Part shown: one piece after another, positions 1-19,891 of the stretch | Numbering within the stretch: the first letter of the stretch is position 1 | Layout: each line of letters starts with the position of its first letter | Source: a virus | Strand: one strand, 5' to 3' | Length of the DNA: 19,891 nucleotides | Virus genome (UHGV): UHGV-0140551 | Made by a program: the position numbers and the translations under genes | Notes under the pieces: generated by a model | What the model was told of the DNA's origin: nothing | The model's database searches: none | The model's input: only the letters and a program-made list of their open reading frames with translations

Positions 1-136
1 TTGTTTCATAACACGCTTTGGATGTAGCGCGAATACGTTATCAGTTAAGACGCTCCTATTAACACCCCACAGCGAACAAACACTTACCATATAAAACAAC
101 TAGTTAAAGTAATTTTTAATGCAGTGAATTGCAGTG

Positions 137-7214: not shown

Positions 7215-7220
7215 CAAACG

Positions 7221-7255
7221 CCGCCGGTGCTGAAACTTGCTTTCAGTGCTGGCGG
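7221..7255 (+). terminator. Stable hairpin immediately after the DinI-like stop codon (15-bp stem with G-U pairs, 5-nt loop); no clear U-tract
   Basis: CCGCCGGTGCTGAAA-cttgc-TTTCAGTGCTGGCGG. Could be a weak terminator, an RNA stability element or a processing site. Confidence 0.35.
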
Positions 7256-7347
7256 GGTTGAACAACGAGCTACGCGAGGCGTTAGCCGGTCATAGCGTCG
7301 CAAATACTTCAACCGTCTGCTGGTTAAATAATTCGAGGTTTTTGTAC

Positions 7348-7558: not shown

Positions 7559-7660
7559 ATGTTATCTATCGTTTATGAAAATCCGTGGACGACGATTTTT
7601 CTGATGATTGTTGCCAGCATGTGCCTCAACAGTGTTATTGGCGCATTGCGCGGCCATTAA
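7559..7660 (+). CDS. Small hydrophobic, probably membrane-spanning peptide (33 aa), not in the supplied ORF track
   Basis: ATG at 7559 to TAA at 7658-7660, translating to MLSIVYENPWTTIFLMIVASMCLNSVIGALRGH. It starts 17 nt after the preceding ORF and is followed by a rho-independent terminator. Below the length cut-off of the ORF track. Confidence 0.35.
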   Translation: MLSIVYENPWTTIFLMIVASMCLNSVIGALRGH

Positions 7661-7682
7661 TCGCGACAAAACCAGACTAAAA

Positions 7683-7708
7683 CCGGCACCCTGAATGCCG
7701 GTTTTTTT
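7683..7708 (+). terminator. Rho-independent terminator ending the early/SOS operon (bidirectional architecture)
   Basis: CCGGCA-ccctgaa-TGCCGG followed by TTTTTTT, and preceded by an A-run. Confidence 0.8.
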
Positions 7709-7868
7709 ATGCCATTTTTCCGCGAATTTCCCGTTTTTTAGTCGTGCATGCATTAGGTGCATGGTTTTGCATGCGTCAGTCTTGCCCGTTCTGTCCGTGC
7801 GCCGCCAGAGCTAGCGCGGATCCAGAGTTGTCATGCAACTGCATTAAAACCGCCCCATAAAGCGGGCA

Positions 7869-7887
7869 GGCGTGGCGGGGAAAGCAT
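7869..7887. other. cos cohesive-end site (186-type)
   Basis: GGCGTGGCGGGGAAAGCAT matches, from memory, the 19-nt cohesive end of coliphage 186 and 17 of 19 positions of P2 cos (GGCGAGGCGGGGAAAGCAC). It lies between the replication gene and the portal remnant, as expected. Confidence 0.7.
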
Positions 7888-8106: not shown

Positions 8107-9111
8107 CTAATTTACATGTATGTAGAGTTCACCGTCGCCAGACCAATCGGGACACTCTAAAACAAGCCCAAACTGCTTGAATATTTCATCAATGATTATT
8201 GTTATCTCCCGAAAATCACCAAAACCTGTAATGTGCTGGTCATTAAACTTCCCATAAAGATTCTGAAAAGCAATGCCTAATTCTGATAATTGATATCTTA
8301 TCTTTGAGTTGGATAGTGTAAGGGATAGCTTTGGATCGTATTCTTTAATATTGATGTTTAGAGAATGGACATAACCCATCGCATAAGCATAAGAGTTGAT
8401 GATTAGCCTGATACGTTTTTTTACTTCAAGATACATGTCATTCAGAGAAATATTACCGTACTTATAACCCCAGATGAGTTTTTCAATCTCGTCAGATACT
8501 TCATTTACAACAGTGTCAAGATTCTCTAAAAATAAATCGATAGTTTCTTGAGGGGCAGACCCCGAAGACATGTAATTAGCGAGATATTCAGACCATGCAC
8601 GCGTGGCTGAGATAAGAAGCGCGCTACCATACTCGTTGACTGTAAAGTTTTGGGCTAAGCATGTTAGTAAGTTTTTTTCATGTACGTGCACTAATTCATG
8701 GTGAATGCGATGGATGACTGCGAGGTATCCTTCTTCTTTCAGTTTTAAGAAGCTACCATCATTGAAAAGCTCAACAAAAAAATCAATCGATAGCACAAGG
8801 GTATATTCTTCACATAGCCCATCATTGCCAATTTTTGTTACTAACTGCCCGACGGCTGCGCCCTGTTTGCTATTGGTAAATGAACTAGGGGATTTGTGTT
8901 GGTAAGAGGATGTTACCTTTTGAAGAGCTTCACTGAAGTTATAGGAAACAATCACGCATTTTAATTTGGAGATATCAAGATTGAGATTTTTTGTTAAAGC
9001 TCGGATAGCTTCTAGTGTGAAATTACCGATATTATTTGCTTCTTGCTCAGTAGCGAAACCTTCGAGGGTTATTTTAAAATCAGTTTCCAAAATATTAATC
9101 TCCGCGCCCAT
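8107..9111 (-). CDS. AT-rich accessory protein with an HExxH (zinc-metallopeptidase-like) motif; candidate anti-phage or abortive-infection gene in the cos-portal hotspot
   Basis: 334-aa ORF of markedly lower GC than the flanking phage genes. It contains HRIHHELVHVHEKN (HELVH at residues 138-142), has no Walker A motif and no transmembrane segments, and sits where P2-like phages carry variable accessory genes. Confidence 0.7.
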   Translation of the reverse strand: MGAEINILETDFKITLEGFATEQEANNIGNFTLEAIRALTKNLNLDISKLKCVIVSYNFSEALQKVTSSYQHKSPSSFTNSKQGAAVGQLVTKIGNDGLCEEYTLVLSIDFFVELFNDGSFLKLKEEGYLAVIHRIHHELVHVHEKNLLTCLAQNFTVNEYGSALLISATRAWSEYLANYMSSGSAPQETIDLFLENLDTVVNEVSDEIEKLIWGYKYGNISLNDMYLEVKKRIRLIINSYAYAMGYVHSLNINIKEYDPKLSLTLSNSKIRYQLSELGIAFQNLYGKFNDQHITGFGDFREITIIIDEIFKQFGLVLECPDWSGDGELYIHVN

Positions 9112-9188: not shown

Positions 9189-9722
9189 TTATTCTGGGTT
9201 GTCGAGGGTGTACTCTTTGAATCTGATGACCTCCATGCCGAGCCAGTCATTTACCTCCCTGAACCTGTCCTGTAGCGGCGACAGCTCGTTGCGCACAAAT
9301 ACCTTTGCCACCTTCTCAACATCACCGAGTGAACCGATATTCTCGGGCTTGCCGCCCATGAGCTGGAACGGTACGCGGTGCGCGTCCATCAGATCGGCGG
9401 CACTGGCCTTCTTGATGTTGAAAAAGTCATCCTTTGTGGCGACCTCGCTCAGTGGCACGATTTTGATGCCGTCCGGTTTTCCGCCGGGAGCGTAGAAAAA
9501 CAGGTTCTTAAAGTTGCCGAGCCCTTTTGAGTTGCGCATCGCCTCGCGCAGCGATTCGACGTCGGTCGCGCTCTGCGCCGGGTCAGTCACATACATGATG
9601 TAGCCTGCGTGCGCGCCGTTCTGATAATACTTGCGGCGGAACAGCGTCGCGGATTCATTCAGCCAAGCGGAATTGACCGTCCAGTCAGCCGAGATTGTGC
9701 CGTACCAAATTGACGCGACGCT
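9189..9722 (-). pseudogene. Portal protein (P2 gpQ-like), 3' fragment only
   Basis: The frame is open from 9722 down to the stop at 9189, with a portal-like C-terminal translation (…FFYAPGGKPDGIKIVPLSEVATKDDFFNIK…VFVRNELSPLQDRFREVNDWLGMEVIRFKEY…). The N-terminal half is absent; a stop lies at 9723-9725 and a J-like frame begins on the opposite strand. Confidence 0.6.
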
Positions 9723-10570: not shown

Positions 10571-11523
10571 CCGCAAAATATTTTGCCATTCTGACCAATC
10601 AGGGCGCGGCGCGGCTGGCGAACGCGGCGGCACTCGGTACCAAACTCAACCTGACGCAGATGGCCGTCGGTGATGCGAATGGTACGTTGCCGACCCCTGA
10701 CCCGGCGCAGACGAAGCTCATTAACCAGAAACGCATCGCGCCGCTGAACCTGCTGACCGTTGACCCGGCCAATACCAGTCAGATTATCGCGGAACAGATT
10801 ATTCCCGAGAATGAAGGTGGTTTCTGGATCCGCGAGATTGGTCTCTATGACGATGATGGTATTCTGATTGCCGTGGCGAACTGTCCGGAGACCTACAAGC
10901 CACAACTGCAGGAGGGAAGCGGTCGCACGCAGACCATTCGCATGATTCTGATTGTGTCGAACACATCGGCAATCACCCTGAAAATCGACCCGGCAGTCGT
11001 GCTGGCAACGCGCCAGTATGTCGACGACAAGATTATCGAGGTGAAAGGATATGCTGATAACCTGATGAAAAAACATGTTGAGGCCGCCAATCCACACAAG
11101 CAGTACCCGTTAATCGCTAATGCTCTGAAAGAAATGGTTGACGCGGGACTGGCCGGCGACGTTCTTAAAAACCTTGGTTTGGGAGAGGGAGCAAAATTAG
11201 GCGCAGCGGTGTGTGTGACCGGCTCTACAGGCTATATGACTATCCCGGCAATGGTCGCCGGGAAAGAACGGGTGATCATATTGCAGTGGTTTGGTGCTAC
11301 TACAACTGATTATGTGACACCAGTAACTGCGAATTTCCCTATTGCATTCCCAAATGAGTGCATGATTCCGTTATTTAGTGATGTATCAACTGGGGCAGTT
11401 GATTTGAGTTCTACAGCCGCATATAGCTTAGCGGTGGGCCGATCATACTATACGACGGTAACAAGAACTCAGATTACATGTGCTGGCTACGGTGGCTTTA
11501 GAGTTTTCGCGATTGGATGGTGA
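10567..11523 (+). CDS. Tail fibre protein (P2 gpH-like): constant N-terminal region fused to the currently expressed variable C-terminal segment
   Basis: N-terminus matches the conserved gpH start ([18 protein letters not shown]…[22 protein letters not shown]…[18 protein letters not shown]…). A recombination site lies inside the gene at 11162-11187. Confidence 0.85.
11162..11187. repeat. Invertase crossover site (hix/gix-like), left copy, inside the tail fibre gene
   Basis: TTCTTAAAAACCTTGGTTTGGGAGAG resembles hix/gix sites and is an imperfect inverted repeat of 12711-12736. Confidence 0.6.
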
Positions 11524-11948
11524 TTAATATGTTTTATTCTGCAAAAGAAAATGCGTTCTACGCTGATGAGCTAAAAAGTATTTATGAAAATGCAGGTAGC
11601 TGGCCTGACGATGCCGTTGAAGTAGACTATTCCGTATTCGTTGAGTTTGCCGGAGAATCACCTAACGGAAAATTACGCGCTCCTAATTCTGATGGTTTAC
11701 CTGAATGGATAGATATTCCCGAACCAACTGAAGAGGAAATTATTGCGTTGGCAGAAGCCGAAAAATCGCGACTGCGTGCTTCAGCTGACTCTGAAATAGA
11801 ATGGCGGCAGGACGCCGTTGATGCGGGGATCGCGACGGAAGAAGAAACTGTTTCATTAGCCGAATGGAAAAAATACCGGGTGCTGCTGATGCGAGTTGAT
11901 ACAGCAGACCCGGACTGGCCTACTCCTCCGGCGACTCAGGCCAGTTGA
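11517..11948 (+). CDS. Tail fibre assembly chaperone (gpG/U-like), paired with the current fibre tip
   Basis: 143-aa ORF with the typical motif [10 protein letters not shown]…WPDDAVEV…; an alternative start is the ATG at 11529. Its 3' end overlaps the convergent paralogue. Confidence 0.85.
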
Positions 11949-12351
11949 TATCTGGTGCGCTGGATATGTCCACAGATTCCAGCGCATCGAGATAATCCAG
12001 CCACTCGTTATACTGGGCCTTCTCGTCGTCTGTAAGTCGCCCCAGCGCAGCTTTACCCGGCCACTGCTTGCTGTTTATATACTCATTAGCCTGATCGATA
12101 CGATACTGTTTTTCAGCTTCAGCTGCTGCGATTTCCTCCTCATGGCTTAAAGGTGGAATGTCTACCCATGCCGGCATTCCATCCTCAGTAGCTCCACGAG
12201 TTTTACCCTCTGGTGGCATCCCCGAATATTCAGTGAATGTCTCATCTGAGACGGCTATGAGATCGTCAGGCCAGTTTCTACTCGCTTCATAAACATCTCT
12301 GAGCTCATCAGGGTAGAAAGCGTTATTTAATGCTGAATAAAAATAAGCCAT
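11920..12351 (-). CDS. Alternative tail fibre assembly chaperone (U'-like) in inverted orientation
   Basis: 143-aa paralogue ([22 protein letters not shown]…WPDDLIAV…) on the opposite strand, convergent with and overlapping the 11517-11948 gene by 29 nt. Confidence 0.8.
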
Positions 12352-12354
12352 TTA

Positions 12355-12726
12355 TTAATACCCCACAGCAAAATAGTTAAACCCGCCAGCGCCGATGGAT
12401 GATTCAGCGTTGGTTCCTGTCTGATAAGCGCGTAGCTGGAAATTAGTTCTCGTAAAATCCTGGGCGGTTAACGCAAAACCTTGACCTGTACCCCCAACAC
12501 TCTGGTCTGTTGCAACAACACATAGCGCCCTGGTTGGAAACGCAATCGGGAATGATACTGTTTCTGGGGATGTTCTCGTTATGGCTATTGCCCATTGAAG
12601 AATTAACCCGCCTGGCAGGTATTGATACCCCGAATCGGCTCGCTGATTACCAAATGAAGACATGTCCGGAATCTGTCCGGAACCAGTGCCAACATTTTTT
12701 TTTGCCGCATCTCCTAAACCAACCTT
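12355..12726 (-). CDS. Alternative tail fibre C-terminal segment (Sv'-like), lacking its own start; expressed only after inversion
   Basis: The frame is open from the recombination site at about 12726 to the stop at 12355. Its …KVGLGDAAKKNVGTGSGQIP… mirrors …[13 protein letters not shown]… at the left site, and its stop is followed by the chaperone start. Confidence 0.65.
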   Translation of the reverse strand, partial: KVGLGDAAKKNVGTGSGQIPDMSSFGNQRADSGYQYLPGGLILQWAIAITRTSPETVSFPIAFPTRALCVVATDQSVGGTGQGFALTAQDFTRTNFQLRAYQTGTNAESSIGAGGFNYFAVGY

Positions 12727-12736
12727 TTAGAAAATG
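12711..12736. repeat. Invertase crossover site (hix/gix-like), right copy
   Basis: CTCCTAAACCAACCTTTTAGAAAATG matches the reverse complement of 11162-11187 at about 18 of 24 positions. Confidence 0.55.
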
Positions 12737-12788
12737 CAGATATTCCGTTCAGCTGGCATGATCCCGACTTTTTACCGGGTTATTTCTC

Positions 12789-13031
12789 ATGTTTATCGGT
12801 TATGTACGTGTATCAACAAATGACCAGAACACCGCATTACAGCGAAATGAACTGGAGTGCGCAGGATGCGAGCTGATTTTCGAAGATAAAATCAGCGGCA
12901 AAACATCAGACTGGCCGGGGCTAAAGAGGTTACTCAGAACCTTGTCAGAGGGCGATACGCTTGTGGTCTGGAAACTGGATCGCCTCGGGTATCTCAACGC
13001 TATACAAAAAATTTCCCGCATCCGTTGCTGA
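12789..13031 (+). pseudogene. Serine DNA invertase (Gin/Hin/Pin family), truncated after about 68 conserved residues
   Basis: MFIGYVRVSTNDQNTALQRNELECAGCELIFEDKISGKT…GDTLVVWKLDRLG closely matches invertase N-termini, then diverges to 12 unrelated residues and a stop. The remaining catalytic part and the C-terminal DNA-binding HTH are missing. Confidence 0.8.
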
Positions 13032-13129
13032 TGTCTCAATGTGTCAGACATCACCCAACACTGACAAATAGCCCCTCAACAGACCAGCCAGGACAATAAC
13101 ACTTGCCCACTAACCACGGAGTTAACCGG

Positions 13130-14308
13130 ATGAGTGATTTTCACCACGGCGTGCAGGTGCTTGAGATTAACGACGGCACCCGCGTCATTTCCACTGTTGC
13201 AACCGCAATTGTCGGCATGGTCTGCACGGCCAGCGATGCGGATGCCGAGACATTCCCCCTCAACGAACCGGTATTGATTACCAATGTGCAGAGCGCCATT
13301 GCAAAAGCCGGTAAAAAAGGCACGTTGTCTGCCTCCCTGCAGGCCATCGCCGACCAGTCAAAACCTGTCACAGTTGTCGTGCGTGTTGCCGAAGGTACCG
13401 GAGAAGACGCCGAAGCGCAGACCATTTCCAATATCATCGGCGGCACGGATGAGAGCGGTAAATATACCGGCATCAAGGCGCTGTTGACTGCCGAAGCAGT
13501 CACCGGCGTTAAGCCGCGCATTCTCGGCGTGCCGGGTCTCGATACCAAAGAGGTCGCAGTCGCACTTGCTTCGGTCTGTATCAGCCTGCGCGCCTTTGGC
13601 TATATCAGCGCATGGGGTTGTAAAACCATTTCCGAGGCGATGGCCTATCGCGAGAATTTCAGCCAGCGCGAGCTGATGGTCATCTGGCCTGATTTCCTTG
13701 CATGGGATACCACCACAAACGCCACCGCACCGGCATACGCAACTGCGCGCGCACTCGGCCTGCGTGCCTATATCGACCAGACCGTCGGCTGGCACAAAAC
13801 CCTGTCTAACATCGGCGTGCAGGGTGTTACCGGCATCAGTGCGTCAGTGTTTTGGGATTTGCAGGCATCCGGCACCGATGCTGATCTGCTCAACGAGGCC
13901 GGGCTCACAACACTGGTGCGTAAGGATGGCTTCCGCTTTTGGGGTAACCGCACCTGCTCTGATGACCCGCTTTTCCTGTTTGAGAACTACACCCGCACCG
14001 CGCAGGTGCTGGCCGACACGATGGCCGAGGCGCACATGTGGGCGGTCGATAAGCCCATCACCGCATCACTTATCCGTGACATTGTCGACGGCATTAACGC
14101 CAAATTCCGCGAGCTGAAATCAAACGGCTACATCGTGGACGGTGAATGCTGGTTTGACGAGGAATCGAACGATAAGGAAACCCTCAAGGCCGGGAAACTG
14201 TATATCGACTACGACTATACACCGGTTCCACCACTGGAAAGCCTGACCCTGCGCCAGCGTATCACCGATAAATATCTGGTAAATCTGGCCGAATCGGTCA
14301 ACAGCTAA
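13130..14308 (+). CDS. Contractile tail sheath protein (P2 gpFI-like)
   Basis: Starts MSDFHHGVQVLEINDGTRVISTVATAIVGMV, as P2 FI does. ATG at 13130 with a GGAG ribosome-binding site; the TTG at 13103 is rejected. Confidence 0.93.
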   Translation: MSDFHHGVQVLEINDGTRVISTVATAIVGMVCTASDADAETFPLNEPVLITNVQSAIAKAGKKGTLSASLQAIADQSKPVTVVVRVAEGTGEDAEAQTISNIIGGTDESGKYTGIKALLTAEAVTGVKPRILGVPGLDTKEVAVALASVCISLRAFGYISAWGCKTISEAMAYRENFSQRELMVIWPDFLAWDTTTNATAPAYATARALGLRAYIDQTVGWHKTLSNIGVQGVTGISASVFWDLQASGTDADLLNEAGLTTLVRKDGFRFWGNRTCSDDPLFLFENYTRTAQVLADTMAEAHMWAVDKPITASLIRDIVDGINAKFRELKSNGYIVDGECWFDEESNDKETLKAGKLYIDYDYTPVPPLESLTLRQRITDKYLVNLAESVNS

Positions 14309-14323
14309 GGAGCCTGAAACAAC

Positions 14324-14842
14324 ATGGCACTACCCCGCAAACTTAAATATCTGAACATGTTCAATGACGGCCTTAGCTACATGGGCGTTGTTGAATCCGT
14401 GACGCTGCCGAAGCTGACCCGCAAGCTCGAAAACTATCGCGGCGGCGGCATGAATGGCGCGGCGGCGATTGACCTTGGTCTCGACGATGATGCGCTCACC
14501 GTCGAATGGTCTGTCGGTGGCCTGCCTGATGTGGCGCTGTGGGCGCAGTACGCCGCGCCGGGTGCTGACGCTGTGCCGTTGCGTTTTGCTGGCTCTTACC
14601 AACGTGACGACACTGGCGAAATCGTGGCGGTCGAGGTGGTCATGCGTGGCCGTCATAAAGAAATCGACGGCGGCGAGAATAAGCAGGGTGAAAACACCTC
14701 GACCAAACTGTCGACCGTATGCACCTATTACCGCCTCACGATTGATGGTAGCGACGTCATCGAAATCGATACCGTCAACATGGTTGAGAAGGTGAACGGC
14801 GTCGACCGTCTGGAACAGCACCGCCGCGCAATCGGGCTGTAA
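14324..14842 (+). CDS. Tail tube protein (P2 gpFII-like)
   Basis: 172-aa ORF directly after the sheath gene, with an AGGAG ribosome-binding site and a conserved FII-like sequence. Confidence 0.9.
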   Translation: MALPRKLKYLNMFNDGLSYMGVVESVTLPKLTRKLENYRGGGMNGAAAIDLGLDDDALTVEWSVGGLPDVALWAQYAAPGADAVPLRFAGSYQRDDTGEIVAVEVVMRGRHKEIDGGENKQGENTSTKLSTVCTYYRLTIDGSDVIEIDTVNMVEKVNGVDRLEQHRRAIGL

Positions 14843-14850
14843 TTCCCTGA

Positions 14851-14879
14851 CCGGTCAGCACTGCTGGCCGGTTATTAAT
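14851..14879 (+). terminator. Hairpin plus U-rich tract between the tube gene and gene E (possible attenuator)
   Basis: CCGGTCAGC-act-GCTGGCCGG (9-bp stem, one G-U pair) followed by TTATTAAT. Confidence 0.4.
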
Positions 14880-14905
14880 CCCCATTCAGAGCAGAGAAAA
14901 ACATC

Positions 14906-15241
14906 ATGGCAAAAGCACCACGTAAAACCGCTGAATTTGTTGATATGGCTGGCAATGAAATTGACACCGTAAACCCGAACGTCGTGACCCTCGACAAGCC
15001 GATTAAGCGCGCCGGTCAGACGATTGATAAAGTCACACTGATTGAGCCGAACGCCGGTACCCTGCGCGGTGTCAGTCTGGCAGCGGTGGCGCAGTCCGAA
15101 GTCGATGCGCTGATTAAGGTATTGCCACGCATGACCTACCCCGCGCTTACGGCGCAGGAGCTTACCGCAATGAACCTGCCCGATATGCTGTCGCTGGCCG
15201 CTAAGGTGATTGGTTTTTTGTCACCGGCTTCGGCGGAGTAG
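14906..15241 (+). CDS. Tail assembly chaperone gpE
   Basis: 111-aa ORF in the conserved position, containing the slippery heptamer T_TTT_TTG at 15214-15220. Confidence 0.85.
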   Translation: MAKAPRKTAEFVDMAGNEIDTVNPNVVTLDKPIKRAGQTIDKVTLIEPNAGTLRGVSLAAVAQSEVDALIKVLPRMTYPALTAQELTAMNLPDMLSLAAKVIGFLSPASAE

Positions 15242-15393
15242 ATTTCCCGCCCGACCTGTCGACCGATGACCTGATGGCGGATATCGCGGTGATATTCCAC
15301 TGGCCGCTATCAGAGCTCTATTCCCTGAGCCTGACCGAGCTCATCACATGGCGCGAAAAGGCGCTGCAGCGTAGCGGACACCACAATGAGTAA
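14906..15393 (+). CDS. gpE+E' extended product made by programmed -1 ribosomal frameshift at 15214-15220
   Basis: After a -1 shift at TTTTTTG the frame reads VTGFGGVDFPPDLSTDDLMADIAVIFHWPLSELYSLSLTELITWREKALQRSGHHNE and stops at 15391-15393, overlapping the tape-measure start. This is the P2 E/E' arrangement. Confidence 0.75.
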
Positions 15394-17828
15394 TAACCTG
15401 AGACTTGAGGTTTTGCTGAAAGCGGTCGACCAGGCGACCCGACCGCTTAAATCCATCCAGACCGCGAGTAAAACCCTGTCGGGCGATATTCGCGAAACAC
15501 AAAAAGGGCTGCGTGACCTGAATGGTCAGGCGTCAAAAATCGACGGCTTTCGTAAGGCCAGTGCGCAACTGGCCGTGACCAGTCAGGCGCTTGAGAAAGC
15601 GAAACGCGAAGCCGGTGAACTGGCCGTGCAGTTTAAAAACTCCACCAGTCCGACCCGCGCGCAGGCGCAGGCACTCGAAGCGGCAAAGCGTGCTGCCTCT
15701 GAGCTACAGACGAAGTACAACAGTCTGAGAACGTCTGTACAGCGCCAGCGCTCCGAACTGATGCAGGCCGGTATTAATACCCGCACCCTTTCTGCCGATG
15801 AGCGTCGGCTCAAAACCTCCATCAGCGAAACGACGGCGCAGCTTAACCGCCAGCGTGAGGCACTCGCGCGTCAGTGCGCAGCAGGCGAAATTAGGCCGGG
15901 TGAAAGAGCGATATAAATCAGGCAAGGAGCTTGCCGGTAACATGGCCGCTGCAGGGGCTGCCGGGGTAGGTATCGCGACAGCGGGAACGATGGCCGGGGT
16001 GAAATTACTGATGCCCGGTTATGACTTTGCGCAGAAAAATTCCGAGCTGCAGGCCGTGCTCGGGGTCGATAAGCAGTCGCCAGAAATGGAGGCGCTACGC
16101 AAACAGGCACGCCAGCTCGGTGACAATACAGCCGCTTCTGCTGATGATGCAGCCAGTGCGCAGATTATTATCGCCAAAGGGGGCGGCGATGCGGCAGCCA
16201 TTCAGGCGACGACACCGGTCACCCTCAATATGGCGCTTGCCAACCGTCGCACGATGGAAGAAAACGCCGCATTACTGATGGGGATGCGCTCTGCGTTTCA
16301 GCTTTCCAATGACAAGGTGGCGCACATTGGCGACGTTCTGTCGACGGTGATGAATAAAACTGCTGCCGATTTCGACGGGCTGAGCGATGCGCTGACATAC
16401 GCCGCGCCGGTGGCGAAAAATGCCGGTGTCAGCATTGAAGAAACTGCCGCAATGGTGGGCGCCCTGCATGACGCCAAAATCACCGGCTCGATGGCCGGCA
16501 CCGGGAGCCGTGCGGTTTTAAGCCGCCTGCAGGCTCCGACCGGTAAAGCGTGGGATGCGCTTAAGGAGCTGGGGGTCAAAACTTCCGACAGTAAAGGCAA
16601 CACGCGCCCGATTTTTACCATCCTCAAGGAAATGCAGGCCAGTTTTGAGCGTAACAATCTCGGCACCGGTCAACAAGCCGAATACATGAAAACGATATTC
16701 GGTGAGGAAGCCAGTTCGGCGGCGGCGGTGCTCATGACTGCCGCCTCAACCGGCAAACTTGACCAGCTAACCTCCACCCTGAAAGCCTCAGACGGAAAAA
16801 CCGCAGAGCTTGTTAAAATTATGCAGGATAACTTAGGTGGCGACTTCAAAGAGTTTCAATCCGCTTATGAGGCCGTCGGTACCGACCTCTACGACCAGCA
16901 AGATAGCTCATTGCGTCAGCTAACTCAGACAGCAACACGGTATGTGCTAAAGCTTGATGACTGGATCAAAGACAACAAGGAGTTAGCGGAAACTATCGGC
17001 ATCATCGCCGGTGGTGCGCTGGCGCTGATTGGTATCATCGGCGGCATTGGTCTCGTTGCGTGGCCGGTTGTCATGGGGATTAATGCCATTATCGCCGCTG
17101 CTGGCGTGCTGGGTACGGTCTTTACTGTCGTCGGTAGTGCCATTGCGACAGCGCTCGGTGCGATTACCTGGCCGATAGTGGCCGTCGGTGCGGCGATTGT
17201 GGCGGGGGCGCTACTCATCCGTAAATATTGGGAGCCCATCAGCGCATTTTTCTCGGGAGTGATTGAGGGCATCATGAGTGCCTTTGCCCCAGTCGGGGAA
17301 ATGTTCGCTCCACTGGCTCCCATTTTTGATGGTCTCGGCGAGAAACTGCGCGGCGTCTGGCAGTGGTTTAAAGACCTGATAGCACCGGTTAAGGCCACGC
17401 AGGAAACGCTTGATAGCTGCAAAAGTGTCGGCGTCATATTTGGTCAGGCACTGGCCTCTGCCTTGATGGCTCCGCTCAATGTTTTTAACAAGCTGCGCAG
17501 CGGTGTCGACTGGCTTCTCGAAAAGCTCGGCATCATCAACAAAGAGTCGGACAGCCTCGACCAGACCGCCGCCAAAACCAATGCCGCCACACAGGGTAAT
17601 TCCTACATCCCGGCAACCAGCACATATGGCGGCTATCAGGCTTATCAGCCAGTTACCGCACCGGCGGGGCGCTCTTACATTGACCAGAGCAAAAGCGAAT
17701 ACAACATCAATCTGCCGGGAGGTGTTGCGCCGGGGCATCAGCTTGACAGACAACTACGCGACACGCTCGAACAGATTGAGCGCGATAAACGCGCCCGCCA
17801 GCGTGCCAACATGACCCACGACTATTGA
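15386..17828 (+). pseudogene. Tail tape-measure protein (P2 gpT-like), split by a frameshift at about 15865-15871
   Basis: Two ORFs (15386-15916 and 15798-17828) together cover a gpT-like protein. The frame switches between …QREALAR and VSAQQAKLG… inside a CGCGCG tract, consistent with a 2-nt contraction of a CG repeat. Confidence 0.7.
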
Positions 17829-17841
17829 GGGGGATTAAACG

Positions 17842-18327
17842 ATGATGCTTGCTCTCGGAATGTTTGTGTTTGAACTTCGCACCCTGCCTTACCAGTCGAT
17901 GCAGCATTCGAAAGATTATCGCTGGGTGTCCAATGACCGGGTGGGTAAACCACCTGCCTATCAGTTTCTTGGCGAGGGGGAAACCTCTATACAGCTTGCT
18001 GGTACGCTATACCCCGCTATCACTGGCGGTTGGATCTCACTTAAGGCTGTAGAGGTGATGGCCAATGAAGGCAGAGCGTGGCCGTTGATAGAGGGAACCG
18101 GAAATATCCTCGGGATGTATATCGTCGATAAAGTATCGACTACACGCACCGAGTTTTTCAGTGATGGTGCGGCCAGAAAGATTGATTTCACGCTTTCGCT
18201 AAAACGGGTTGATGAATCGCTGACAGAGATGTTTGGTGACCTGAATAAACAGGCCAGTGAGCTTCTCGGCTCTGCCGGTAATTTGACAGATAAACTGCAG
18301 GGTATGCCCGGAGGTTTCACTGCATGA
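17842..18327 (+). CDS. Tail protein gpU
   Basis: 161-aa ORF with a GAGGGGG ribosome-binding site in the conserved T-U-D order; the translation resembles P2 gpU. Confidence 0.85.
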   Translation: MMLALGMFVFELRTLPYQSMQHSKDYRWVSNDRVGKPPAYQFLGEGETSIQLAGTLYPAITGGWISLKAVEVMANEGRAWPLIEGTGNILGMYIVDKVSTTRTEFFSDGAARKIDFTLSLKRVDESLTEMFGDLNKQASELLGSAGNLTDKLQGMPGGFTA

Positions 18328-19493
18328 TAACGGGGATGGCAATTGACGCCGGTGCCAGCCTTGCACCGGCTTTTATGCTGACGCTGAACAGTCAGGACAT
18401 TACCAGCAACTTCAGCGACCGGCTGATTTCTCTCACCATGACGGACAATAGGGGCTTTGAAGCTGACCAGCTCGACATTGAGCTCGATGACACCGATGGG
18501 AAAGTCGAGTTACCCCTGCGCGGGGCAGTGCTGACGTTGTGGCTTGGCTGGCAGGGTTCGGCGCTGCTGAATAAGGGGGATTTTACGGTCGATGAGATTG
18601 AGCACCGGGGGGCTCCTGATACCCTGACCATCCGGGCGCGCAGCGCGGACTTTCGCGGCACGCTAAATTCCAGGCGTGAAGAGTCATGGCACGACACCAC
18701 CATCGGCGAACTGGTCAGTACCATCGCAAAGCGCAACAAACTGACGGCCAGCATTGCGGAATCGCTGAAAAAAATCCCGGTACCGCATATCGACCAGTCG
18801 CAGGAATCCGACGCGGTATTTTTGAGTCGACTGGCTGACCGCAACGGGGCAACGGTATCGGTGAAGGCAGGGAAACTGTTGTTTCTGAAAGCCGGTAGTG
18901 CGATGACGGCCAGCGGCAAACCCGTCCCGCAAATGACGCTGACCCGCAGTGATGGTGACCGTCATCAGTTTGCCATTGCCGACCGTGGGGCTTATACCGG
19001 CGTCACTGCTAAATGGTTGCACACCAAAGACCCGAAGCCACAAAAGCAGAAAGTAACGCTGAAACGCAAGCCAAAAGAGAAGCACCTGCGCGCACTGGAA
19101 CACCCAAAAGCAAAGCCGGTCAGCAAAAAGACAAAGGTCAAAAAAGAACAGGAAGCACGTGAGGGTGAGTACATGGCCGGTGAAGCCGATAACGTGCTGG
19201 CGCTGACGACAGTCTATGCCTCAAAGGCACAGGCGATGCGCGCCGCTCAGGCTAAGTGGGATAAACTGCAGCGAGGTGTTGCGGAGTTTTCAATCACACT
19301 GGCGCTAGGGCGAGCGGATTTATTTCCTGAGACGCCTGTACGCGTGTCAGGCTTTAAGCGCGTCATAGACGAGCAGGCATGGTTAATCAGCAAGGTGACC
19401 CACAACCTCAATAATAACGGTTTCACGACGGGCTTAGAGCTTGAGGTTAAACTCTCCGATGTGGAGTACAGCTCAGAAGAAAATGAGGAGTGA
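18324..19493 (+). CDS. Late control gene D protein (gpD, tail/baseplate hub)
   Basis: 389-aa ORF overlapping the U stop (ATGA), in the conserved position, with a gpD-like sequence. Confidence 0.88.
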   Translation: MITGMAIDAGASLAPAFMLTLNSQDITSNFSDRLISLTMTDNRGFEADQLDIELDDTDGKVELPLRGAVLTLWLGWQGSALLNKGDFTVDEIEHRGAPDTLTIRARSADFRGTLNSRREESWHDTTIGELVSTIAKRNKLTASIAESLKKIPVPHIDQSQESDAVFLSRLADRNGATVSVKAGKLLFLKAGSAMTASGKPVPQMTLTRSDGDRHQFAIADRGAYTGVTAKWLHTKDPKPQKQKVTLKRKPKEKHLRALEHPKAKPVSKKTKVKKEQEAREGEYMAGEADNVLALTTVYASKAQAMRAAQAKWDKLQRGVAEFSITLALGRADLFPETPVRVSGFKRVIDEQAWLISKVTHNLNNNGFTTGLELEVKLSDVEYSSEENEE

Positions 19494-19568
19494 AAAAGCA
19501 AACCAAAACTTGCAAATGCAATTTTGAAGTTTATTATTCCCTCAGATACGCCAGCAGGGGAAATAATT

Positions 19569-19787
19569 ATGATGCACTGCCCGTTATGCCAAAACGCCGC
19601 ACATGCTCGCACTAGCCGGTACCTTAGCACCGAAACAAAAGAACGTTATCACCAGTGCCAGAACATAAATTGCGGATGTACATTTATCACTTTTGAGACG
19701 CTATCAAGATTCATTGTGAAACCGGGTACTGTTGATCCTGCTCCGCCACACCCCATCAGAAACCAACAACAGCAACTTTGGCTTTGA
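19569..19787 (+). CDS. ogr: Ogr/Delta-family zinc-finger late-gene transcription activator
   Basis: MMHCPLCQNAAHARTSRYLSTETKERYHQCQNINCGCTFITFE closely matches P2 Ogr (CxxC…CxxxxC zinc finger). The longer ORF N-terminus is rejected. Confidence 0.9.
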   Translation: MMHCPLCQNAAHARTSRYLSTETKERYHQCQNINCGCTFITFETLSRFIVKPGTVDPAPPHPIRNQQQQLWL

Positions 19788-19809
19788 ACCTGCTTCGGCA
19801 GGTTTTTTT
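19787..19809 (+). terminator. Rho-independent terminator after ogr
   Basis: AACCTGC-ttcg-GCAGGTT followed by TTTTTTT. Confidence 0.8.
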
Positions 19810-19828
19810 ATATCTGTCGCCATCGCTC

Positions 19829-19857
19829 CAACCTCTGCCGCCAATTTGCCGCCACCA
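19829..19857. repeat. Right attachment-site repeat (attR core)
   Basis: CAACCTCTGCCGCCAATTTGCCGCCACCA, an imperfect direct repeat of 142-170. Confidence 0.7.
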
Positions 19858-19862
19858 CCAAT

Positions 19863-19891
19863 AAAAAAGGGGTTAGCAATTCGCTAACCCC
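19863..19891 (-). terminator. Rho-independent terminator of a leftward-transcribed flanking (host) gene
   Basis: GGGGTTAGC-aattc-GCTAACCCC preceded on the plus strand by AAAAAA, which is a U-tract on the minus strand. It lies just outside attR. Confidence 0.6.

Follow-up and report, generated by a model that had tools for sequence, protein, structure and literature searches.

A split tape-measure gene beside a (CG)3 tract in a defective 186-like prophage of Escherichia coli

The viral DNA analysed here (UHGV-0140551; 19,891 nucleotides, the whole of which is referred to as the window) encodes a tape-measure protein in two overlapping reading frames. This raises the question of whether the gene has been inactivated by a genuine mutation or whether the split originates from repeat slippage, a sequencing error, or a functional arrangement of two products. 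The data presented below make it very probable that the window carries a genuine, heritable 2-bp deletion (GG) in the tape-measure gene of a 186-like (Eganvirus, P2-family) prophage of E. coli, as a part of ordinary decay. A frameshift pseudogene in a defective prophage is an already known kind of event, with no new mechanism involved.

The split gene and its identity

The tape-measure stretch (2,443 nt) shows 87.7% nucleotide identity to gene G of phage 186 and 76.9% to phage P2 (over 99-100% of the query), and its counterparts in many 186-like phages of Salmonella, Yersinia, and Escherichia show 86-90% identity. In the 186 annotation, G is the tail length tape-measure protein, homologue of P2 T. 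A domain search identified PF10145 (PhageMin_Tail) at residues 101-302 of the second ORF (E = 6.4e-44; 150.7 bits, cut-off 33.2), and returned no domain above threshold for the first ORF (176 aa). As in 186, the genes follow the order sheath, tube, E, E', T, U, D, B/ogr. Mapping of the annotations of 186 and of the E. coli 1008S13 prophage (locus L003) onto the window places the tail assembly chaperone genes E and E' at 14906-15241 and 15274-15393, and the tail genes U (17842-18327) and D (18324-19493), downstream of the tape-measure gene, are intact, all of them on the forward strand. Nucleotide identity to 186 G, the PF10145 domain, and the E-E'-T-U-D synteny bear out the preliminary description of this gene as gpT-like, and more precisely of the gpT/186 G type. 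The length is also similar (814 aa in the window after repair, 812 aa in 186). Unlike in 186 G and P2 T, however, a 2-nt deletion disrupts the frame of the window copy after codon 162.

The 5' fragment of this pseudogene (15386-15916, forward strand; 176 aa) comprises 162 native codons followed by 14 out-of-frame codons (QCAAGEIRPGERAI) and a stop, its C-terminal end being ...NRQREALARQCAAGEIRPGERAI*, and shares its start and first 162 residues with the intact protein of 1008S13. The 3' remainder, from V163 to the end (15870-17828, forward strand), lies in frame +1 with respect to the 5' fragment and holds the PhageMin_Tail domain as well as a hydrophobic segment. As a mechanically called ORF, this second part extends from an ATG at 15798 to 17828 on the forward strand (676 aa, opening with MSVGSKPPSAKRRRSLTASVRHSRVSAQQAKLG...), and overlaps the first ORF by 119 nt (15798-15916). 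The frames switch at CTCGCGCG (15863-15870), with (CG)3 at 15865-15870. The sequence across the site is GAG GCA CTC GCG CGT CAG, and the conserved protein can be followed in frame 1 through R162 (codon 15869-15871) and in frame 2 from V (GTC, 15870-15872). Both the ORF translations and these frame positions agree with the earlier account, which had described two overlapping ORFs with a frame switch inside 15860-15875. Gene callers place the start of the second ORF at ATG 15942, with an AAGGAG 12 nt upstream, giving a product of 628 aa; for this reason, an exact look-up of the 676-aa mechanical ORF found no record, and that of the 176-aa ORF succeeded.

Members of this family are characterized by one uninterrupted ORF of about 812-815 codons, in place of which the window shows the split into 176 and 676 aa. 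Re-insertion of GG after 15864 restores an uninterrupted ORF of 814 aa, whose product differs by 1 residue from the intact protein of 1008S13 and by 2 from that of E. coli MB06232 (locus L004), the gene being intact and 2,445 nt long in both strains. Since the uninterrupted ORF is present only after this re-insertion, the gene is a pseudogene of the P2/186-type tape-measure family. Roughly 1,440 complete E. coli genomes carry the gene; the listed matches are annotated as tape measure protein, and the gene is annotated as intact in 1008S13, MB06232, and a third locus, from E. coli EC6622 (L081).

The P2 tape measure sits in the tube lumen (bioRxiv 10.64898/2026.09.14.750843), and tail length is dictated by the tape measure (PMC13585406). 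With the frame shifted after codon 162 of 814, the native start would yield a 176-aa product devoid of PhageMin_Tail and of everything beyond it. The gene is most likely non-functional, because the tape measure is needed for a tail of defined length. The lesion appears to be recent, as the repaired gene is only 1-2 aa away from its intact relatives and carries no other damage. In annotation, the gene should be named a tape-measure pseudogene, and not two hypothetical proteins.

The lost bases and the adjacent (CG)3 tract

The missing GG maps between 15864 and 15865 on the forward strand, where all intact relatives read CACT-GG-CGCGCG. In the alignment, 1008S13, MB06232, phage 186, and phage PHB48 read CACTGGCGCGCGTCAG, as opposed to CACT--CGCGCGTCAG in the window. 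The reading CACTGGCGCGCG is shared by five relatives, among them two E. coli prophages with 99.8-99.9% identity to the window, and the ancestral state at the site is CTGGCGCGCG. The lost bases are the third base of codon L160 and the first base of codon A161. Their placement is unique, since no other contiguous 2-nt deletion yields the sequence of the window. This deletion is the only indel in the 7.2 kb (12700-19891) aligned with the closest relative, 1008S13.

The deletion adjoins a (CG)3 tract (15865-15870, forward strand) that has the same number of units as in the intact relatives, TGG(CG)3T in these and T(CG)3T in the window. Such tracts are ordinary in this DNA, as the window holds 7 CGCGCG and 17 GCGCGC. 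Accordingly, of the 2-nt change in a (CG)n tract that had been proposed from the window alone, the 2-nt frameshift stands, but the bases lost are GG, they lie 5' of the tract, and the (CG)3 count has not changed.

Alternating GC sequences are known hotspots for -2 frameshifts, as exemplified by the NarI site (GGCGCC), and the lesion is a -2 event touching an alternating GC run. It could consequently be postulated that replication slippage took one CG or GC unit out of a (CG)4 or (GC)3 tract in a NarI-type event, possibly at a reversible contingency locus. This origin is nevertheless very improbable. Had the ancestral CTGGCGCGCGTC lost a GC or CG unit, the result would be CTGGCGCGTC instead of the observed CTCGCGCGTC, so that an extra G->C change would be needed, whereas one deletion of GG explains the window. 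A (CG)4 ancestor was searched for in GTDB genomes and IMG/VR with GGCACTNGCGCGCGTCAG..., in which N is variable. Among the 59 relatives in these viral and genome collections with an exact match to the surrounding 30-mer, none has the (CG)4 allele; all 59 contigs (IMG/VR and GTDB representative genomes) matching GGCACTNGCGCGCGTCAGTGCGCAGCAGGC have a G at N, a wobble position. A megablast search with a synthetic (CG)4 query recovered 16 complete E. coli genomes, none of which matched it fully, and the best match in complete E. coli genomes (98.9%) had one mismatch, at the G. The comparison with homologous prophages that had been suggested as a check for (CG)4 has therefore spoken against the loss of a CG unit.

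Neither of the two signs of a contingency locus was found. The first is a difference of whole repeat units from the ancestor, and the tract is (CG)3 in both alleles, with the GG 5' of it. The second is a polymorphism of repeat length among relatives; the tract is the same in 59/59 contigs, and a further 34/34 IMG/VR contigs with conserved anchors keep the intact 73-nt spacing across the site. A templated mutation at a quasi-palindrome was also considered and discarded, because the ancestral CACTGGCGCGCGTCAGTG is an imperfect 18-nt palindrome that the deletion makes no more perfect.

Alternative accounts of the split

An E. coli protein of 628 aa, GAB5128689.1, clusters with the 628-aa product at 98% identity and is indexed in 27 blocks of the assembly collection, among which 24 carrier contigs were read. 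These belong to a sister prophage at the same rplS site (contigs L075-L080; E. coli GCA_052859745.1 and about 24 other contigs), whose tape-measure gene is 93% identical to that of the window. The sister gene is broken in codon 166 by a 1-nt deletion (A; GCGCACAGCAG -> GCGCCAGCAG), 14 nt downstream of the window deletion, which leaves ORFs of 169 and 628 aa (L075 9937-9938, also in L076-L080; the intact counterpart is at about 994 of L081). In EC6622, a 99.8% identical relative of the sister lineage, the tape-measure gene is intact. The sister deletion is an event separate from that of the window.

The presence of ΔGG (codons 160/161) and ΔA (codon 166) in two sister lineages at the same yfiB/rplS site is the basis for proposing that the break is non-neutral, owing either to a local indel hotspot or to selection that disarms the tail and keeps the 628-aa product. 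Relatedly, the element could be a helper-dependent, satellite-like derivative, for which a helper phage would supply heads, baseplate, lysis, and tape measure. Little credence can be given to these proposals. In a search of a protein collection that favoured proteins of the query's length, and in which breaks were located at residues 63-281, about 5-6 of about 65 truncated N-terminal fragments break within codons 157-169, versus about 3.8 expected. A hotspot at these codons is not supported, as there is no clear excess of breaks and the spacing is normal in 34/34 IMG/VR contigs. The two breaks within 15 nt are a coincidence worth recording that provides no evidence of mechanism, with a chance of roughly 0.05 given the search route.

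The preliminary description had left room for a sequencing error at the dinucleotide repeat. An error of sequencing or assembly at this GC-rich tract, in a gene that is really intact, would be in line with the composition of the site (67% GC over 60 nt), with the low k-mer coverage of the fetched contigs (about 4-6x, from the contig names), and with the fact that the allele is missing from all curated complete genomes. Judged from assemblies, however, there is very little likelihood of such an error. In the ENA/Logan assembly collection, an exact match to the 176-aa product is recorded for 30 blocks, among which 24 carrier contigs were read. The ten loci that were fetched, from ten sample accessions, all carry the mutated site and are 100% identical to the window there and over their whole length, except for one SNP in L005. 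Three contig-naming styles are represented among them (ENA NODE_, ENA k119_, and Logan contigs). Examples of the carriers are ERZ1755283 NODE_1 (19,875 nt), ERZ1754488 NODE_1 (19,946 nt), ERZ1755106, ERZ1755270, ERZ1754891, and ERZ27234110 (a k119 contig) in ENA, and SRR1215958, SRR1215507, SRR1211531, and SRR1214034 among the Logan assemblies. An artefact would be irreproducible across independent libraries, and the ten loci are identical at the site.

The recurrence of the same sequence in ten sample accessions and under three naming styles excludes a random error, and the fact that the site reads as intact in every relative fetched or matched makes a systematic one very unlikely. In addition, the lesion is the sole indel in the 7.2-kb alignment, and the loss of both bases of a GG is, as a matter of general knowledge, not typical of systematic sequencing error. 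The error alternative can thus be regarded as effectively refuted. As the carrier assemblies are clonal (100% identical), they demonstrate that the sequence is reproducible, and are not evidence of repeated origin. A 31-mer spanning the mutation had 0 matches among GTDB representative genomes, in IMG/VR, and among JGI metagenome contigs, and the deletion allele was not found in complete E. coli RefSeq genomes. It is the allele of a single clone, which to date has appeared in no other data than these read sets. A frameshift beside a short dinucleotide run, then, need not mean slippage or sequencing error, and here the near-identical relatives together with an exact look-up of the truncated product in public assemblies settled both questions without reads.

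It is exceedingly unlikely that the split is functional, that is, that a +1/-2 ribosomal frameshift restores the tape measure or that separate products of 176 and 628 aa have been selected. In its favour are the near-identical 169 + 628 aa split that an independent deletion has produced at the same chromosomal site in the sister lineage and the AAGGAG upstream of the internal ATG 15942, but the sister was found via the same 628-aa gene call, and other fragments break anywhere from residue 63 to residue 281, without a clear excess at residues 157-169. Moreover, the window element, having lost baseplate and head genes, could not use a tape measure. No slippery sequence with a stimulatory element was seen when the 119-nt overlap (15798-15916) was read by eye, which revealed no prfB-like CUU UGA, no X XXY YYZ heptamer at the frame junction, and no homopolymer (A/T) run. 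The frame change is missing from every other relative examined (186, PHB48, 1008S13, MB06232, EC6622, and the 59 + 34 contigs), and consequently it is not a conserved recoding signal.

P2-family phages do possess a programmed -1 frameshift, that of E/E', in the same tail operon and directly upstream of the tape-measure gene (186 annotation). This frameshift, which all relatives conserve and which is intact in the window, maps within 14906-15393, about 600 nt upstream. In contrast, the lesion at 15864/15865 is not conserved; it is a mutation unrelated to the E/E' programmed frameshift. Recoding as a rescue of the broken gene was rejected on these grounds. The 628-aa C-terminal product predicted by gene callers may be made from the internal ATG.

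Decay of the resident prophage

The GG deletion is accompanied by larger lesions. Compared with the 1008S13 prophage, the window is missing 9,933 bp (L003 2039-11971), with the junction at 9674-9675 and 1 nt of microhomology. The missing segment contained the N-terminal portion of the portal gene, both terminase subunits, scaffold, capsid, head completion, X, holin, endolysin, LysB/LysC, R, S, V, W, and the 5' portion of J. The portal remnant is an ORF at 9189-9596 on the reverse strand. A truncated invertase gene is common to the window and 1008S13, with an 80-aa Resolvase ORF at 12789-13031. The element still has int, cI, replication gene A, cos, and B/ogr. The other signs of decay that had been suspected are thereby confirmed in the 9.9-kb deletion and the truncated invertase, and the idea of a genuine inactivating mutation consistent with them is supported by a 2-nt frameshift that is reproducible in assemblies.

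The prophages of 1008S13 (NZ_CP147053) and MB06232 (NZ_CM129885) are located between yfiB and rplS. Both share with the window the integration site, the att core, and 99.8-99.9% nucleotide identity over shared regions, but, unlike the window, both have an intact tape-measure gene. Furthermore, the 1008S13 prophage retains all the morphogenesis genes lost from the window, and that of MB06232 carries a deletion of another extent, running from capsid to E'. Different lesions in three near-identical prophages that occupy one site are what is usually seen when a resident prophage decays vertically. The same pattern, several independent lesions in near-identical copies, is that of defective ('grounded') prophages, whose decay is treated as general background in PMC6379469 and PMC7744054. 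There is no substantive difference from other defective prophages; the window copy retains int, cI, the replication gene, cos, ogr, and an attP-type junction, and should be annotated as a defective 186-like prophage.

Truncated N-terminal fragments of the tape measure are present in public data in many lengths, and the gene is a large mutational target. Besides the tape measure, the same clonal element has lost genes for head, packaging, lysis, and baseplate, about 9.9 kb in all. An element unable to build heads or baseplates would incur no further cost from losing the tape measure, and the frameshift would be a single neutral step by which a defective prophage decays.

The window corresponds to one complete circle of 19,891 bp, in which positions 19787-19891 are joined to 1-97; ERZ1754488 NODE_1 equals the window plus a 55-nt overlap. 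The 13-nt attachment core AGTTAAGACGCTC lies at 43-55 (forward strand), where the end of the window joins its start in an attP-type junction. Contigs L005, L006, L008, and L014 likewise run from the ogr side through this core into the int side, and L009 and L010 contain an integrated attR junction into rplS-trmD-rimM-rpsP-ffh. The occurrence of both types of junction indicates that the element is integrated, and that either an excised circle or a tandem copy is present in addition. At 7869-7887 (forward strand), the cos 19-mer GGCGTGGCGGGGAAAGCAT is identical to the cohesive end of phage 186, so a helper phage of the 186/P2 type could in principle package the 19.9-kb circle. A search of a plasmid collection gave no close match to the element (best 86%), and the best phage match was 89.6%. 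Among 5,426 complete E. coli genomes, the best match to the chromosomal flank from rplS to ffh (L009 4879-8482) has 99.5% identity, which implies that the host clone is not represented in this set.

Some other features of the element were recorded. Two hypothetical genes, of 334 aa (8107-9111) and 66 aa (7562-7762), both on the reverse strand, lie between cos and the portal remnant, where 186 has none; the region between cos and portal in P2-like phages is a known site for accessory or defence cargo. A PADLOC scan of the accessory ORFs near cos and int, including these two, yielded nothing significant. Downstream of a DinI-like (Tum-type) gene, the 69 nt at 7217-7285 align twice to the MB06232 prophage (L004 10764-11237), once on each side of about 337 nt absent from the window, so that the difference is a small repeat-flanked indel. 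Finally, the region 11186-12700, where the C-terminal end of the tail fibre, the tail-fibre assembly genes, and the sequence preceding the truncated invertase are located, has no similarity to the 1008S13 prophage, which is otherwise 99.9% identical, and looks like the exchange of a host-range cassette.
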